64,000 bases of DNA from a virus. Positions 816-56,161 of this stretch are shown here, piece after piece. Location: IMG/VR virus record IMGVR_UViG_3300027712_001108, positions 64,001 to 128,000 of that record. The stretch is one strand, 5' to 3'. The first letter of the stretch is position 1; each line of letters opens with the position of its first letter. The notes below the pieces were generated by a model, which was given only the letters and a program-made list of their open reading frames with translations, searched no databases and was not told the DNA's origin. Position numbers and translations under genes: made by a program.

Positions 816-1871
816 ATGCGATATTATGAAATAGCAAACACTGCTAGTCTTGAAATGCTAGACGAAGGGTGGATTTCCAAAGCTGCAAAGTGGGCGGCTG
901 CGGGTGCAACAGCCGCAGCATTGGGATATGTAGCAGGTGACATTACCAAACAGCCAGGCCGTGATATACAGCAAACACCTGATAGTATCGCACAGCAAAT
1001 GGATTATGCAAATAATACAGCATTGGACGAACCTGCAGGACCGTCTAGCTTGGCACCTACTACATCGCCTCGTCCTAAGGCAAGACCCGCTGATTTAACA
1101 GGCAACTCTACGCAAGGTAATACAGTAGATGTACAAACGCCAGGTCCTGACACAGTTAGACCAAAATTGAGACCCGACGATACAATAGATGTACAAACGC
1201 CAGGACCAGATACTGTCAGGCCACGGCCACGTCCAGATACTGACCTAAGTAAAATTCCGCCACCCACAATGCCACAGGACGTACTGGTTTCTAGATTGGC
1301 AACCGCAGATGCCAATGTAAAAGTAAACAACATCAGCAATAATAAAGACATAGAAAACATGTTGATAACAACTGCAACTTCTGCAGGTATAGTAGATACT
1401 GAGTTACAGGCATTTTTGGCACAGGCATATCATGAAAGCCGTAATTTTACATCAACTGTAGAGCAACGGTACGGCAAAGGCAAAAACTATTTTAAACGTG
1501 CATATGACATACGATATAACCCTGTTGCAGCAACGAGACTGGGAAATATAAAACCAGGCGACGGTGAAAAATTCAAAGGTCGTGGGTATCTGCAAATTAC
1601 GGGACGTTTTAATTATTCAAAAGCAGCCAAGGCTCTGGGGTTGCCACTGTTAGAACAACCAGAACTGTTGGAAGATCCAAAAATAGCTGCCGCAGTATCG
1701 GTATGGTTTTGGAAATGGCGAGTGCGAGCTCGCAGTTCAGGCGACTGGAACAATGTGCAAGAAATCACCAACATTGTTAATGGAGGCGACACCGCAGTCG
1801 ATGACCGAGGCGAACTGTTTGATGCGTATGGACATCTAAGATCGTTAAAACGCGAAACAAGACCTGATTGA
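816..1871 (+). CDS. GH19 (chitinase/lysozyme-like) hydrolase with N-terminal leader and Pro-rich linker
   Basis: AFLAQAYHES, FKGRGYLQITGRFNY and ITNIVNGG motifs. Confidence 0.85.
   Translation: MRYYEIANTASLEMLDEGWISKAAKWAAAGATAAALGYVAGDITKQPGRDIQQTPDSIAQQMDYANNTALDEPAGPSSLAPTTSPRPKARPADLTGNSTQGNTVDVQTPGPDTVRPKLRPDDTIDVQTPGPDTVRPRPRPDTDLSKIPPPTMPQDVLVSRLATADANVKVNNISNNKDIENMLITTATSAGIVDTELQAFLAQAYHESRNFTSTVEQRYGKGKNYFKRAYDIRYNPVAATRLGNIKPGDGEKFKGRGYLQITGRFNYSKAAKALGLPLLEQPELLEDPKIAAAVSVWFWKWRVRARSSGDWNNVQEITNIVNGGDTAVDDRGELFDAYGHLRSLKRETRPD
1121..1240 (+). repeat. 60-nt tandem duplication (DVQTPGPDTVRP x2) in the GH19 linker
   Basis: TAGATGTACAAACGCCAGG repeated with period 60. Confidence 0.85.
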
Positions 1872-1920
1872 CAACGCTGCATCTTATCGCTATATTACTA
1901 ATGTAGACGAAAAAGAATAC

Positions 1921-1997
1921 GGGGGGTTAGCTCAATTGGTTAGAGCGCCGGACTCATAATCCGTAGGTTGCCAGTTCAAGTCTGGCACTCCCTACCA
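1921..1997 (+). tRNA. tRNA with CAT anticodon, Ile2-like
   Basis: Cloverleaf, loop CTCATAA, CCA. Confidence 0.85.
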
Positions 1998-2002
1998 AAC
2001 TT

Positions 2003-2077
2003 GCGTGTATGGTCCAGATGGATGGGCACGGGACTCTAAATCCTAGGAGGCAGGCTCAATACCTGTTATACGCACCA
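2003..2077 (+). tRNA. Amber suppressor tRNA (anticodon CTA)
   Basis: Acceptor GCGTGTA/TATACGC-A-CCA; anticodon arm CGGGA-CTCTAAA-TCCTA; atypical T-loop CTCAATA. Confidence 0.8.
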
Positions 2078-2110
2078 TAAATAATTCAGTGTTTAAGGAG
2101 AAATAACACC

Positions 2111-2719
2111 ATGTCGTAGATTGAAATTGCCTGTACCGAGTTAGTATTCCACTTTAATAAAAAACACTTAGAAGATCCCACTATTCCAATGTGGGTTGTT
2201 AAGACCAAAGGTGAGACGTATTACGTCCATCATGTCAGCAGTGACATGCCATGGTCTACAAAAGAAACTCCCAACAATAACAGTACCAAAGGCAGCATTA
2301 AGTTTAAACGGTGTCATCTTGTTATTGATGACAACAATGACGCTACTATCAAGCCGTTGACAATGAGCGATGCTATACGTCTCAAAAAGACAGAGCCCAA
2401 GAAAATACGACTGATTATGGATTATCGCAAACAGATAGACGAATTTGTTGAATACTGCGATGAACAAGAGATTTGGCATGATGGGGTTCACATACTGCCG
2501 GGTAGCTGTGGTTCGAGATTCTATGCAACCGATATCAAAGAAGATGACCTGCTGCTTACTCGCATGCGGTTCCCACCTAAGATGTTCCGTGAACTGATGC
2601 CCAATGAATATCTATATGCGTACTACGATAAAGTAGGACCTGATGTAGAACCACCAGATTACGACGACGATTACTACGATGACGACGAAGACGAAGATGA
2701 CGATGAGGACGCAGCCTAA
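2111..2719 (+). CDS. Hypothetical protein with in-frame TAG at codon 3 and acidic C-tail (amber readthrough candidate)
   Basis: AAGGAG SD then ATG TCG TAG ATT GAA..., in frame with ORF 2189..2719. Confidence 0.7.
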
Positions 2720-20963: not shown

Positions 20964-21093
20964 TCCCTAGTAGCTCAGGGGCAGAGCAGCTGACTGGGTC
21001 CGAAAATACTGTAAAGTGGATTTGTGGAGTTCGAAACTCCTAGGACAAAATTTAATCAGCGAGTCGGTGGTTCGAAACCATCCTAGGGAGCCA
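20964..21093 (+). tRNA. tRNA-Asn(GTT)-like with a 55-nt insertion in the anticodon
   Basis: Perfect acceptor TCCCTAG/CTAGGGA-G-CCA; GCTGA-CTG[55 nt]TTAA-TCAGC. Confidence 0.75.
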
Positions 21094-35278: not shown

Positions 35279-36060
35279 GTGAAACTCCCTGGCGAAACTA
35301 TAGCACTTACTGGGATCATCTGCCTCCACCAATGAGGCCCACTCCCAGTATAATAGATGTGATGACGAGCAATAGCACACCGGGGCATGTGCTGTTGTTG
35401 GGAGTTACACCTGAGATACATGCTGCGTTTGATCACGTCACTGCGATAGATCGAGATTCCAGCATGATTGCTAATGTTTGGCCAGGGAACACCGATAACA
35501 AACAAGTACAGCAGGGTTCATGGACAGAAATGGATTGGCCTGAGGCCACATTCGATACCATAATAGGTGACTGCGCTATACCCTTGCTTACAGATGTTGA
35601 CAGCATTGCCGCATTTCAAACTCGTTGCCTCCATTGGCTTAAACCCGGCGGTAGCTTTGTGCATAGATTGATGCAGCGACCAGAAACGGCTGTGACCAGA
35701 CATGATATTGCCCGTGAATTGTCTGGTCCGGCTACAATAAACTTCCATGCCATGCGGTGGCGCATGCAGCAGTGTATAGCTGCTGACAACAACGGTGTGG
35801 CACCTGCTATGAAAGTACGCGAATTGTTTGAATCGCTAGTACCAGATAGAGATGCGCTATGTGACATCACTGGTTGGAAACGAATAGATGTAGACAGCAT
35901 TGACCTTTATAAGGGCAATACCAACCGTATATTCTTTGGTAGCCAACAACAGTGGCGCAATACAATCCCTGCTAACGCAGTGGACATACGCTGGACATAT
36001 GTGTTTGATCATGATATCAGCGAAGATTTTCCTGTAATGCGTTGGAGAAAACCACTATGA
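35275..36060 (+). CDS. Class I SAM-dependent methyltransferase
   Basis: LLLGVTPE, FDTIIGD and LKPGG motifs. Confidence 0.8.
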   Translation: MSETPWRNYSTYWDHLPPPMRPTPSIIDVMTSNSTPGHVLLLGVTPEIHAAFDHVTAIDRDSSMIANVWPGNTDNKQVQQGSWTEMDWPEATFDTIIGDCAIPLLTDVDSIAAFQTRCLHWLKPGGSFVHRLMQRPETAVTRHDIARELSGPATINFHAMRWRMQQCIAADNNGVAPAMKVRELFESLVPDRDALCDITGWKRIDVDSIDLYKGNTNRIFFGSQQQWRNTIPANAVDIRWTYVFDHDISEDFPVMRWRKPL

Positions 36061-37394
36061 ATTTAGAAGGTATTGTATGGCCGCGTATGTACCAAGGCCC
36101 TAACTTGGTACTAATGGCTATGCTGGCAGAGCTTGATCGTACCATGTGGTTAGATCCTGATGTGATAGAAGCCGAACAGTTTGGTCAGCTTCGTTTGATA
36201 ATAGCGCATCACATGGCGCATAGCCCGCAGTTTGCCGCACGTATGTGTGCTGCGGGGTTAACAGCAACAGAAATTACAGATCCTGTCAGTTTTAGAAAAC
36301 TACCTACTCTGACGCGATTGGACATACAACAAGCAGGCGACAGTTTCTACAGCAGATATATTCCTAAAAGTCACGGACAACCGGGCGAAACTCGCACCAG
36401 TGGTAGCACAGGCGAACCTGTAAGAATACGCAAGACACAGATTGATGCACTGTACTGGACTGCACATGCAATTAGAGATCACTTGTGGGCTCGTAGAGAT
36501 TTTCGTCACAAGCTGTTAAGCATACGTGCTGACATCTTCAAGTACGGCGAGAACCCCAATTGGGGACAGCCTATGTCTGATATATGGCAAACAGGACTTA
36601 GCATAGGCATGCCTGCCACATTCGATATGCGTGAGCAATTAAAAATCATCAAAGAATTCCAGCCTGGTATACTATTGATCTATCCCAACAATCTCAGTAT
36701 TATACTGGACGAAATGGAACTTGATGGTGGTGACTTCAGCTACATCAAACATGTCAAAACCATAGGTGAAACTGTACATCAATGGCAGCGAGATAAGACA
36801 CAGCGTGTTTTGGGATTAAAGATAGAAGACAACTACAGCAGCAATGAAATGGGCTGTATGGCTATACAGTGTCCTACAACTGACAACTATCATGTGATGA
36901 CTGAAACTGTTATAGTAGAAATACTGAATGATGACAACCAACCCTGCGCACCGGGTGAAGTTGGACGTTTGGTAGTTACAGATCTGCATAATCATGCTAG
37001 CCCACTAATACGTTATGATATCGGCGACTGGGCAGAAGCAGGCGAACGCTGTAGCTGCGGACGTGGATTGCCAACTATTAGACGCTTTATAGGTCGTGAA
37101 CACAGCATATTGACTCGACCGGATGGTACACGTATATGGCCTATATTCTATGGTGCCAAAATGAATGACATAGCACCGGTACGTCAATATCAGTTCCGTC
37201 AAAAGACTCTCACCGGCATGGAGTTCCGTTGCTTTACAGAAGAGCCACTAACTGAAGCACAGCGTTCAGGATTGATAGCATTGGTGCAGGATGCACTGGG
37301 CTATCCATATGAAATGGATCTTGTTGAATACAGACAACCTTTGCCAACTACTGGCAGAGGCAAGTTCCAAGAATTTATACGTGAAATTCCCTAA
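36057..37394 (+). CDS. Phenylacetate-CoA ligase-like adenylate-forming enzyme
   Basis: TSGSTGEP, YSSNEMG, PLIRYDIGD and CSCGRG motifs. Confidence 0.85.
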   Translation: MNLEGIVWPRMYQGPNLVLMAMLAELDRTMWLDPDVIEAEQFGQLRLIIAHHMAHSPQFAARMCAAGLTATEITDPVSFRKLPTLTRLDIQQAGDSFYSRYIPKSHGQPGETRTSGSTGEPVRIRKTQIDALYWTAHAIRDHLWARRDFRHKLLSIRADIFKYGENPNWGQPMSDIWQTGLSIGMPATFDMREQLKIIKEFQPGILLIYPNNLSIILDEMELDGGDFSYIKHVKTIGETVHQWQRDKTQRVLGLKIEDNYSSNEMGCMAIQCPTTDNYHVMTETVIVEILNDDNQPCAPGEVGRLVVTDLHNHASPLIRYDIGDWAEAGERCSCGRGLPTIRRFIGREHSILTRPDGTRIWPIFYGAKMNDIAPVRQYQFRQKTLTGMEFRCFTEEPLTEAQRSGLIALVQDALGYPYEMDLVEYRQPLPTTGRGKFQEFIREIP

Positions 37395-37410: not shown

Positions 37411-37764
37411 ATGAGCGAACTAAAACAGATGATTGTCATGCGCAAGGATCTAAACATGCGCAAAGGCAAGATGGTGGCACAGGGTGCGCATGCCAGCATG
37501 AAAGCACTGCTGGAAAACATGGAGCACCCTAGCATCAAGCAATGGTTAAGCGGCCCGTTTGCCAAAATTGCTGTAACTGTGGACAGCGAAGAAGAACTGT
37601 TTGCAGTGATGAATAACGCCAAAGCAGCAGGATTGATTACCACCCTGATTACAGATGCAGGACGCACTGAGTTTAACGGTGTGGCAACCAATACCTGCAT
37701 TGCAGTAGGACCTGCATCCAATGAAGACCTTGCACCTATCACCGGACATCTAAAACTGCTGTGA
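37411..37764 (+). CDS. pth2: Peptidyl-tRNA hydrolase, Pth2 type
   Basis: RKDLNMRKGKMVAQGAHA, DAGRTEF and TCIAVGP motifs. Confidence 0.9.
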   Translation: MSELKQMIVMRKDLNMRKGKMVAQGAHASMKALLENMEHPSIKQWLSGPFAKIAVTVDSEEELFAVMNNAKAAGLITTLITDAGRTEFNGVATNTCIAVGPASNEDLAPITGHLKLL

Positions 37765-54778: not shown

Positions 54779-56161
54779 ATGACTAACTTAATTCTCAATA
54801 CAGACAGCTACAAAGCCAGCCATTGGGGCCAATACCCTGCTGGCACCGAGCGAGTATACAGCTACATTGAAAGCCGAGGCGGGCGATTTGATCGCACTGT
54901 GGTATTTGGTCCGCAGATGTTTATCAAGAACACGCTGATGAAAGGCGTTACAGTTGATGACGTTAAAGAAGCCAAAGAGATGTGGCCTGCACATGGTGAA
55001 CCTTTCAACGAAGAAGGTTGGATGGACATTGCTGTTCGACTCAAAGGCAAGCTGCCGTTGCTGATCAAAGCAGTACCGGAAGGTACTGTATTGCCTACGC
55101 ACAACGCTATGGTTACACTGGAAAACACTGACCACAAGCATTTTTGGTTGACCAGCTACATCGAAACTGCACTGCTTCGTGCTGTTTGGTACCCGACCAC
55201 TGTTGCTACGCTCAGCTGGCACATCAAGCAGATGATCAAAGCTGCAATCGATAAGACCAGCGATGTGCCTGAGCAGATTGCATTCAAGCTGCACGACTTT
55301 GGTGCTAGAGGTGTAAGCAGCGAAGAGACTGCCGGCATTGGCGGCGCTGCACACCTTGTGAACTTTATGGGTACTGATACCATGAGTGGTGTTGTTGCTG
55401 CCAAGCGTTATTACAACGAGCCAATGGCAGGCTTTAGTATTCCTGCTGCTGAACACAGCACTATGACCAGCTGGGGTCGTGATCACGAAGCAGACGCATA
55501 TTCTAACATGATTGACCGTTACGGCAAGCCGGGTGCTGTGTTTGCCGTAGTCAGCGACAGCTATGACTTTTGGCATGCAGTAAGTAGCATCTGGGGAGAA
55601 CAACTACGCCAGCGTGTGATAGACAGTGGTGCTACACTAGTTGTGCGTCCCGACAGCGGTGATCCTACCACTGTGCCAGTTAAAGCAATTGAACTACTGG
55701 CAGAGAAGTTTGGCTACACTGTGAACAGCAAAGGCTACAAGGTACTGCCTAACTGTGTGCGAGTGATCCAAGGTGACGGCATCACAATCGAAAGCATCGT
55801 TACACTGCTTGCCAACTTGGAAACTGCTGGATTTGCCATCGACAACCTTGCGTTTGGTATGGGCGGCGGACTTGGACAGATGGTCAACCGCGACACGCAG
55901 AAGTTTGCCATGAAAGCCAGTGCTGCTATGGTTAACGGCGAATGGCGCGATGTTTACAAAGATCCTGTCACTGACCACGGCAAGCAAAGCAAGCGTGGAC
56001 GACTGGCACTGATCCGTGAAAACGGCAAGTGGGAGACTGTTGGCGAAAGCGGCTGGGCGTGGGCCAATTACCTAGAACCTGTATTCCGCGATGGTGAACT
56101 GCTGCGTGACCAGACATTTGCAGACGTTCGTGCGCACAGCAACCGTACTGCATTGGACTAA
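54779..56161 (+). CDS. nadV: Nicotinamide phosphoribosyltransferase
   Basis: TDSYKASH, LHDFGARG, SIPAAEHS, VRPDSG and IQGDG motifs. Confidence 0.95.
   Translation: MTNLILNTDSYKASHWGQYPAGTERVYSYIESRGGRFDRTVVFGPQMFIKNTLMKGVTVDDVKEAKEMWPAHGEPFNEEGWMDIAVRLKGKLPLLIKAVPEGTVLPTHNAMVTLENTDHKHFWLTSYIETALLRAVWYPTTVATLSWHIKQMIKAAIDKTSDVPEQIAFKLHDFGARGVSSEETAGIGGAAHLVNFMGTDTMSGVVAAKRYYNEPMAGFSIPAAEHSTMTSWGRDHEADAYSNMIDRYGKPGAVFAVVSDSYDFWHAVSSIWGEQLRQRVIDSGATLVVRPDSGDPTTVPVKAIELLAEKFGYTVNSKGYKVLPNCVRVIQGDGITIESIVTLLANLETAGFAIDNLAFGMGGGLGQMVNRDTQKFAMKASAAMVNGEWRDVYKDPVTDHGKQSKRGRLALIRENGKWETVGESGWAWANYLEPVFRDGELLRDQTFADVRAHSNRTALD

Follow-up and report, generated by a model that had tools for sequence, protein, structure and literature searches.

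A conserved early UAG codon in a phage gene lying beside a phage tRNA(CUA) that probably gates its translation

Introduction

Suppressor tRNAs encoded by phages that use the standard genetic code have had no known target. In the present study, we examined a 64,000-nucleotide stretch of viral DNA (positions 64,001 to 128,000 of IMG/VR record IMGVR_UViG_3300027712_001108; hereafter, the window), in which a tRNA with the anticodon CUA is immediately followed by a gene whose third codon is TAG. This raised the question of whether the gene is expressed only when the tRNA of the phage overrides the stop. A first-pass annotation, made from the sequence alone, proposed a two-part module in which the translation of one protein depends on the amber suppressor of the phage itself. 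We attempted to confirm this arrangement, and investigated whether it is conserved in related phages. We found no paper describing this family.

Results

Anatomy of the locus

We first read the locus directly. The following features were identified, all on the plus strand.
1868..1896 (+), putative sigma-70-like promoter (TTGACA, 17 nt, TATATT; 11 of 12 matches), a possible start of a shared transcript
1921..1997 (+), tRNA-Met(CAT), 5 nt upstream of the suppressor tRNA
2003..2077 (+), tRNA with anticodon CUA (amber suppressor type)
2095..2100 (+), Shine-Dalgarno (SD) sequence AAGGAG, 10 nt before ATG 2111
2111..2119 (+), leader and gate, ATG TCG TAG, followed by ATT
2120..2383 (+), conserved N-terminal domain of the gated protein, predicted to be beta-rich (VFHFNKKHLEDPTIPMW ... 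STKETP ... TKGSIKFK)
2399..2644 (+), predicted C-terminal alpha/beta domain with a ferredoxin/ACT-like arrangement
2645..2719 (+), acidic Asp/Glu/Tyr-rich tail and TAA stop (2717-2719)

The 75-nt tRNA folds as a cloverleaf with a 7-bp acceptor stem, A73, an encoded CCA, a D-loop with GG, and a 7-nt anticodon loop C-T-CTA-A-A, which has U33 and a purine at position 37. Its anticodon stem has 4 bp because 27-43 is a C.A mismatch. The Rfam tRNA model (RF00005) scored it at 41.1 bits against a gathering score of 29. However, this tRNA is atypical: ARAGORN did not call it, its T-loop is CTCAATA with C54, and most of the neighboring tRNAs scored 50-72 bits. Comparison with its orthologues in four related phage loci (L004, L015, L018, and L022 of our set, in which loci are numbered with the prefix L) indicated that seven pairs change on both sides, that 92% of cells are paired, and that the acceptor, D, and T stems are 100% paired, showing that the tRNA is under structural selection. 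The upstream tRNA-Met was called by ARAGORN and scored 68.4 bits with Rfam. A tRNA-Met also lies just upstream of the suppressor in L004, and about 300 nt upstream in L019, L021, L029, L032, L040, L063, and L068. The promoter was identified only by a consensus scan, which found no more promoter-like sites than shuffled sequence gives, and the upstream region is not conserved in L004. The first-pass annotation had also noted a late-promoter motif before the gene. This site is CATAAATAA and not the T4-type consensus TATAAATA, which is not enriched in the window (7 found, 5.5 expected).

The ATG at 2111 begins 33 nt downstream of the tRNA. After the TAG at 2117-2119, the frame is open and in phase with ATG 2189, and no GGAG-like motif precedes 2189. 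The leader and gate are identical in L004.

The stretch between the TAG and Met 2189 is coding

We next investigated whether the 23 codons between the TAG and ATG 2189 are translated. Homologues aligned from residue 4, 7, or 13 of the read-through protein. F10, F12, N13, and D19 were invariant in both of our alignments (A1 and A2), and K14 and L17 were conserved in at least 90% of sequences. The entropies at codon positions 1, 2, and 3 were 10.4, 7.2, and 27.2 bits, respectively, and 64% of codon differences were synonymous. In the AF2 model of the N-terminal domain (pLDDT 91.8), these residues form the first beta-strand. In fused forms, the same residues lie in the middle of a longer protein.

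The early TAG and the adjacent tRNA(CUA) are conserved in related phages

The early TAG, in the layout SD-ATG-(0-4 codons)-TAG and usually followed by an Ile codon, was kept in 73 of 76 analysable viral-contig loci. The cultured Rhizobium phage RHph_I1_18 has the same layout, MSEFM-TAG-NESCREV, which is unannotated and is followed, 11 nt after its stop codon, by an annotated tRNA(cta). In total, 74 of 77 loci, or 58 distinct ones, have TAG 0-3 codons before the conserved core. This conservation excludes a sequencing error at 2117. A megablast search against cultured phages found only a tRNA-Met match. Across 57 distinct gated loci, the leader is 1-11 codons long (mode 2; mostly 2-4), the stop is always TAG, an SD-like motif precedes the leader ATG in 47, and the next codon is ATT or ATC in 50. 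The leader codons vary freely while the TAG does not. The base after the TAG (+4) is A in 53 of the 57, against 5 of 11 genuine TAG stops of this genome; in E. coli, this is likely the best-suppressed context.

A same-strand tRNA(CUA) was found within 3 kb in 50 of 58 distinct gated loci, 45 of them upstream with a median gap of 137 nt; the remaining 8 showed none within the 3 kb analysed. The anticodon loop CTCTAAA or TTCTAAA was found in 45 of 49 distinct related suppressors. These loci are phylogenetically related, and hence the counts overstate their independence.

The genome is not globally recoded

A scan of the 157,923-bp genome for an SD, ATG, 0-8 codons, a stop, and then a coding-like open frame with no early start returned this site as the only TAG case. 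The same scan over the related loci gave 64 TAG against 5 TAA and 2 TGA, and 61 of the 64 TAG hits belonged to this gene family. No other TAG in the 158 kb has coding-like sequence on both sides, long ORFs are intact under code 11, and 11 of 161 coding-like ORFs end in TAG, the rarest stop. A strong suppressor would extend these 11 ORFs. Tandem back-up stops after the genuine TAG stops occurred at a median of 5 codons, against 9 for TAA and TGA, but 11 cases are too few to conclude anything.

A second gated family

Interestingly, PTH2-like peptidyl-tRNA hydrolases carry the same kind of gate, and there the gate codon covaries with the suppressor anticodon. Phage Phosso has MKY-TAG and two tRNA(cta), whereas Atu_ph07 has MIGEHF-TGA at the same place and a tRNA(tca) (PMC6102473), and no tRNA(cta) was found in it. 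The PTH2 of the window is a separate, ungated gene at 37411-37764.

Sequence and predicted structure of the gated protein

To characterize the gated protein, we searched Pfam, PHROGs, and Atlas features, none of which gave a match; accordingly, the gated protein itself is not a recognizable PTH2 (PF01981). A profile search of 1.84 billion proteins found 156 clusters, all in this family. Their architectures were N-domain with C-domain, stand-alone, or the domain after a helical N-region of about 100 aa, with no informative fusion. The N-domain had no fold match (Foldseek best E 0.41, VIA best Z 3.3). The C-domain, which is present only in the roughly 180-220 aa forms, was modelled by AF2 with a pLDDT of 88, but its best structural matches, which were ferredoxin/ACT/uS10-like, were weak (VIA Z at most 6.5, Foldseek E at least 0.013, Atlas TM 0.52 over 74 residues to an ACT cluster) and in the range of a common arrangement. 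The acidic tail (pLDDT 57-75) recurs in the long forms of alignment A1. A complex prediction for the gated protein with the neighboring PTH2-like protein gave no verdict and is not evidence either way.

The amino acid inserted at the TAG was not resolved by tRNA similarity: the best matches scattered over Met, Lys, Thr, and Trp with low scores, and the common acceptor GCG..A73 is shared with Lys, Leu, Met, and Val tRNAs of the same phages. Many database homologues show Q at the gate position. However, one of them, P0060, translates to its record only when TAG is read as Q, indicating that the Q comes from gene calling with code 15.

Discussion

Here, we propose that the locus is a suppressor-gated gene. 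This explanation is likely, although it rests on comparative evidence alone, and suppression itself, co-transcription, and the regulatory purpose are inferred. The tRNA(CUA) and the gene at 2111-2719 lie on one strand and are probably co-transcribed. In this model, ribosomes start at the SD-served ATG 2111 and meet UAG at codon 3. If RF1 wins, only a dipeptide is made, whereas if the charged phage tRNA(CUA) wins, translation continues into a 202-residue protein whose conserved domain begins right after the UAG. The output of this one protein would therefore report how much functional suppressor (made, processed, and charged) is present relative to RF1, and the locus would behave as a one-codon translational AND gate or delay element in a phage that otherwise uses the standard code. 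As the UAG sits in a non-conserved leader, the identity of the inserted residue probably does not matter; a Lys-type tRNA origin is the most parsimonious guess, but a weak one. The UAG-A context and the 4-bp anticodon stem fit tuning of read-through. Recurrent linkage to tRNA arrays and to gated PTH2-like peptidyl-tRNA hydrolases suggests a role of the protein connected with translation or tRNA. The core inference of the first-pass annotation was supported, while its suggestion of a timing switch or a tRNA-integrity sensor remains a hypothesis.

Among the alternatives, termination at the UAG followed by re-initiation on the adjacent AUU, a near-cognate start, survives best but seems unlikely. 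ATT or ATC follows the stop in 50 of 57 distinct loci, and the codon is also Ile in 8 of 11 gated PTH2-like genes, which suggests a signal rather than a protein constraint and leaves room for re-initiation. In addition, one lineage (L065) has ATG directly followed by TAG. On the other hand, re-initiation has no need for a particular stop codon, yet the stop is TAG in all 57 loci although TAG is the rarest stop. Seven of the 57 have AAC, CAC, GTA, or GTT after the stop, and AAC and CAC cannot start translation. Neither the co-located tRNA(CUA) nor the TAG/CUA against TGA/UCA covariation between Phosso and Atu_ph07 is explained by this alternative.

It is also improbable that the TAG is a real stop and that the protein starts at Met 2189, with the upstream conservation being a relic or a regulatory nucleotide element. 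Standard gene callers would annotate the gene in this way, many database members begin at the equivalent 'MWV...' Met (profile position 25), and that Met is nearly invariant. However, the 23 preceding codons are conserved as protein, and no SD precedes 2189. Partial recoding of the phage, with TAG as a sense codon in a set of genes (code 15-like), appeared equally doubtful. TAG is the rarest stop, and Borges et al. (bioRxiv 10.1101/2021.08.26.457843) describe rare stops and acquisition of a suppressor as the route to recoding. Nevertheless, no other leader-TAG design or internal TAG gene was found, although only about 30% of the genome is in hand, and in every related locus the TAG sits at one fixed position at the very start of the gene rather than scattered. 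Least likely is a special residue such as pyrrolysine: 'tRNA-Pyl', as ARAGORN and the RHph_I1_18 annotation label CUA tRNAs, is only the default name given by ARAGORN to this anticodon, and the resemblance to tRNA-Pyl noted in the first-pass annotation fails on every structural hallmark that can be read from the sequence (two nucleotides, TG, at positions 8-9, an 8-nt D-loop AGATGGAT with GG, a 4-bp anticodon stem, and a 4-nt variable loop GGAG, against one nucleotide, a small D-loop without GG, a 6-bp stem, and a 3-nt variable loop), while the TAG lies in a variable leader outside the conserved core, ungated members (L014 and L077) start with Met at the following position, and the suppressor tRNAs of different lineages have unrelated acceptor stems. 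An initiator-like tRNA reading TAG as a start was rejected because 1-72 is a G-C pair and the anticodon stem lacks three G-C pairs.

More speculatively, and only as a tentative possibility, the gate may be the read-out of a self-contained circuit that measures the UAG-decoding state of the cell (charged suppressor against RF1) and produces, in proportion to that state, proteins that manage or amplify suppression, namely the conserved protein of unknown fold and, in sister phages, a PTH2-like peptidyl-tRNA hydrolase carrying the same gate. If so, 'orphan' suppressor tRNAs of standard-code phages belong to a dedicated translation-remodelling module with its own feed-forward control, whose gate codon would co-evolve with the tRNA anticodon.

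The locus can be compared with several known systems. In stop-codon-recoded phages (code 15, TAG read as Gln; crAss-like, Lak, Garnet, Topaz, and others; bioRxiv 10.1101/2021.08.26.457843), a phage-encoded tRNA(CUA) lets in-frame TAG codons be read in a standard-code host, and this dependence is proposed to time gene expression. There, many late or lysis genes carry scattered TAGs that align with Gln, whereas here the genome is standard code, a single gene carries a single TAG at a fixed position (codon 2-6) in a dispensable leader next to the tRNA, and no aligned residue supports Gln. Borges et al. proposed a route to full recoding that begins with a suppressor tRNA, and a phage with a suppressor and just one in-frame stop would sit near its start.

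Cultured jumbo phages such as XacN1, with two tRNA(CUA) (PMC5852040), and Atu_ph07, with tRNA(UCA) (PMC6102473), are standard-code phages with large tRNA arrays that include an orphan suppressor tRNA. The XacN1 authors read through all 18 amber stops and could not find a target, and the Atu_ph07 authors named no specific target. The present module would supply a specific, conserved target, an early gate codon, and we found such a gate in the PTH2 genes of Atu_ph07 (TGA) and Phosso (TAG). It would also explain why the target was missed: gene callers truncate the gene to an internal Met, translate it with code 15, or skip it, and this family and its gated PTH2-like neighbors are mis-annotated in public databases.

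Suppressor tRNAs with 4-bp anticodon stems that enhance read-through are known from Blastocrithidia tRNA-Trp and from a bacterial survey (PMC13092985). The unpaired 27-43 of the tRNA in the window matches a feature reported there to raise UAG read-through in a tRNA-Thr-derived suppressor, and 42 of 49 distinct suppressors in the related loci have fewer than 5 anticodon-stem pairs, against 22 of 127 control tRNAs. In most of these phage suppressors, however, the open pair is 31-39 (C.A or A.C), next to the loop, and the anticodon is cognate (CUA) rather than near-cognate.

The autoregulation of prfB (RF2) also uses a conserved in-frame stop codon (UGA) early in an ORF, where competition between termination and an alternative decoding event sets the output of the protein. 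prfB escapes by a +1 frameshift, and the sensed factor is its own product, whereas here escape would be by a cognate suppressor tRNA, and the protein has no known link to termination. Finally, the same two-part logic, in which output needs both the mRNA and a suppressor tRNA, appears to underlie a synthetic AND gate made from supD tRNA and a T7 RNA polymerase gene with amber codons (Anderson, Voigt and Arkin 2007). That circuit is engineered, probably with separate promoters for the two inputs, while the present one, which would be the smallest natural translational switch of a stop codon and a cognate tRNA that we know of, is natural, and its tRNA and target appear to share one transcript.

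The amber suppressor tRNA and the downstream gene

We first re-examined the sequence, which was as the first-pass annotation had described it, namely a tRNA with a CTA anticodon followed by a gene with TAG at codon 3. The tRNA was read as acceptor GCGTGTA/TATACGC, D-arm GTCC-AGATGGAT-GGGC, anticodon arm CGGGA-CTCTAAA-TCCTA, variable loop GGAG, T-arm GCAGG-CTCAATA-CCTGT, and A73-CCA. The elements of the locus are as follows.

2003-2077, tRNA with anticodon CUA
2095-2100, AAGGAG
2111-2119, ATG TCG TAG, after which the frame runs open
2189, internal ATG in the same frame
2717-2719, TAA

ARAGORN listed 34 tRNAs in the window but not this one, whereas the Rfam tRNA model scored it 41.1 bits against a gathering score of 29. 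Another tRNA missed by ARAGORN was found at window 20964-21090 (+), which Rfam scored 45.2 bits; it has an insertion of about 55 nt in the anticodon loop, and the insertion itself contains a T-arm-like hairpin (GGAGTTCGAAACTCC). The tRNA island is interleaved, in window 8985-32685, with at least four radical-SAM enzymes (8985, 12766, 24809, and 31507) and a PstS-like phosphate-binding protein (18146), and a NAMPT-type nicotinamide phosphoribosyltransferase lies at 54779.

Comparative evidence for translation after the TAG

We next investigated whether the stretch between the TAG and the Met at 2189 is translated. A tblastn search against cultured phages aligned homologues from residue 7 or 13 of the read-through protein, upstream of the Met at 2189. 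In addition, 78 IMG/VR loci (termed L004-L081) aligned, most of them from the first residue after the TAG. In 45 distinct in-register sequences, the 23 codons between the TAG and the Met varied mainly at third positions: the entropy was 10.4, 7.2, and 27.2 bits for codon positions 1, 2, and 3, respectively, and 64% of differing codons were synonymous. Furthermore, these residues form the first beta-strand of a confident AF2 model (pLDDT 88 for the whole protein and 91.8 for the N-domain).

Conservation of the gate and its association with tRNA(CUA)

In 73 of 76 analysable viral loci plus the window, the stop just upstream of the conserved core was TAG, preceded by an ATG-led leader of usually 2-4 codons (MS, MTQQ, MSM, MA, MK, and others) with an SD-like motif. 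This amounts to 58 distinct gated loci, although the loci are related and the counts are not independent. Leader codons vary widely and the TAG does not. The base after the TAG was A in 53 of 57 distinct loci, and the next codon was ATT or ATC in 50. One lineage (L065) has ATG directly followed by TAG. Interestingly, the exceptions were informative: L014 and L077 begin with a normal Met at or next to the position after the gate. Therefore, the leader and the inserted residue are dispensable for the protein.

ARAGORN found a same-strand tRNA(cta) in most loci within the 3 kb inspected on each side, and Rfam added tRNAs that ARAGORN missed in L004, L016, L028, L061, and L064. The tRNA that ARAGORN read as Arg(tct) upstream of the gene in L015, L018, and L022 is the orthologue of the window's tRNA, with loop TT-CTA-AC in the same register. 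In total, 50 of 58 distinct gated loci had the tRNA within this range; 45 were upstream (median gap 137 nt) and 5 were downstream. In cultured Rhizobium phage RHph_I1_18, the homologue is unannotated; it reads MSEFM-TAG-NESCREV and is followed 11 nt after its stop by an annotated 'tRNA-Pyl(cta)'. Other structured RNAs were also observed in related phage contigs. GOLLD RNA (Rfam RF02032) lies at the head of the tRNA arrays in L018 (339-801, 195.8 bits) and L015 (1-441, 157.9 bits), with a tRNA-like match nested inside it, and a permuted tmRNA (RF04321, 70.4 bits) lies 1.7 kb downstream of the gated gene in L081 (4728-4997).

Stop codon usage of the genome

The record is a 157,923-bp IMG/VR contig that CheckV estimated to be about 30% complete. 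Its closest relative, L004 (87% protein identity), lies on a 518-kb contig, and the record is hence probably a jumbo-phage fragment. Of 161 coding-like ORFs, 98 end in TAA, 52 in TGA, and 11 in TAG. In a codon-usage scan of this partial genome, no other TAG with coding-like sequence on both sides was found, and the only short-leader/SD/TAG design was the one at 2117. Over all related loci, the same design scan gave 64 TAG against 5 TAA and 2 TGA. These results indicated that the genome, as far as it is in hand, is not recoded.

A second gated family

The three TAG hits outside the family were two PTH2-like peptidyl-tRNA hydrolase genes (in phage Phosso and L014) and one uncharacterised ORF in L057. 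A tblastn follow-up identified eight further gated PTH2-like genes directly upstream of the family gene. The PTH2-like genes carrying the same early gate (M-x-x-TAG-Ile), often directly upstream of the family gene, together with the corresponding gene of Atu_ph07, a relative of Phosso, are as follows.

L002 381-866, Phosso, MKY-TAG-VEEK (Pfam PTH2 72.9 bits)
L003 417-866, Atu_ph07, MIGEHF-TGA-INYEE
L014 2631-2997, TAG gate
L069-L073, L076, L077, and L079, about 2620-2980, TAG gate

In L014, L077, and L079, where the family gene is not gated, the PTH2-like neighbour is. Interestingly, Atu_ph07 has TGA at the corresponding place and carries a tRNA(tca), and we found no tRNA(cta) in it (see also PMC6102473). 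A 119-nt tRNA match (57 bits) that ARAGORN does not call was seen in Atu_ph07 at 323905-324023 (-), with an insertion of about 45 nt in the anticodon loop that contains a CTCTAAA motif. In contrast, Phosso carries two tRNA(cta), one of them 4.3 kb upstream of the gated gene. This covariation is hard to explain by anything other than decoding of the gate by the phage's suppressor. The window's own PTH2 gene (37411-37764, +; 118.8 bits) is canonical, with an ordinary ATG start and no gate, and an adenylate-forming enzyme-like ORF (36015-37394) lies just upstream.

Features of the suppressor tRNAs

Compared with its orthologues, the window's tRNA keeps the acceptor, D, and T stems 100% paired, with 7 pairs changed on both sides, and no shuffle out of 500 reached the observed values. 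Therefore, it is under selection as a tRNA despite its C54 and low score. The closest orthologue, at L004 2884-2958, has T-loop CGCAATA (G55) and D-loop AGACAGAT (AG in place of GG), i.e. an A18/G55 elbow pairing. The anticodon stem of the window's tRNA has only 4 pairs because 27-43 is C.A; an open top pair is reported to raise UAG read-through by a CUA-anticodon tRNA-Thr (PMC13092985). Across 49 distinct suppressors, 31-39 was unpaired in 32 (C.A in 16 and A.C in 14), and only 7 had five pairs. Among 127 control tRNAs from the same loci, 126 were paired at 31-39 and 105 had five pairs (Fisher p about 1e-21, ignoring relatedness). The suppressors as a class thus have a weakened anticodon stem. 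Acceptor stems differed between lineages (GCGCTAG.., GGCTCCG.., and GCCTGGT..), suggesting that the inserted amino acid is probably not uniform. The hallmarks of tRNA-Pyl, which the first-pass annotation had considered the anticodon arm to resemble, were absent.

Predicted structure and distribution of the gated protein

The protein has three parts: a predicted beta-rich N-domain (residues 1-88), a predicted ferredoxin/ACT-like C-domain (residues 94-175), and an acidic tail. No Pfam or PHROG family matched it. The N-domain showed no convincing structural relative (Foldseek best E 0.41 and VIA best Z 3.3), and the matches of the C-domain were in the range of a common arrangement. A profile search of 1.84 billion proteins found only 156 clusters, in three architectures, many of them truncated at the internal Met by gene callers. 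In public protein databases, members of the family (P0019, P0032, P0060, P0116, and P0166-P0176 in our collection) are stored either truncated to the internal 'MWV' Met or with Q at the gate; the latter was shown for P0060 to arise from gene calling with code 15, and the others share the pattern. The only lead to its function is recurrent linkage to tRNA arrays and PTH2-like genes.

Proposed mechanism and comparison with known systems

Considering the above results, which are all comparative, the best reading is a suppressor-gated gene: competition between tRNA(CUA) and RF1 at codon 3 sets the output, and a failed attempt costs only a dipeptide. The main rival, though an unlikely one, is re-initiation at the following AUU, because Ile follows the gate so often. 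However, re-initiation does not explain the exclusive use of TAG, the non-start codons in 7 lineages, the co-located tRNA, or the TAG/CUA against TGA/UCA switch.

In our literature searches, we found no description of a single early-stop gate paired with a cognate phage tRNA. Standard-code jumbo phages with 'orphan' suppressors are on record, and their authors could not name targets (PMC5852040). Recoded phages are proposed to use suppressors to time late genes (Borges et al., 10.1101/2021.08.26.457843).
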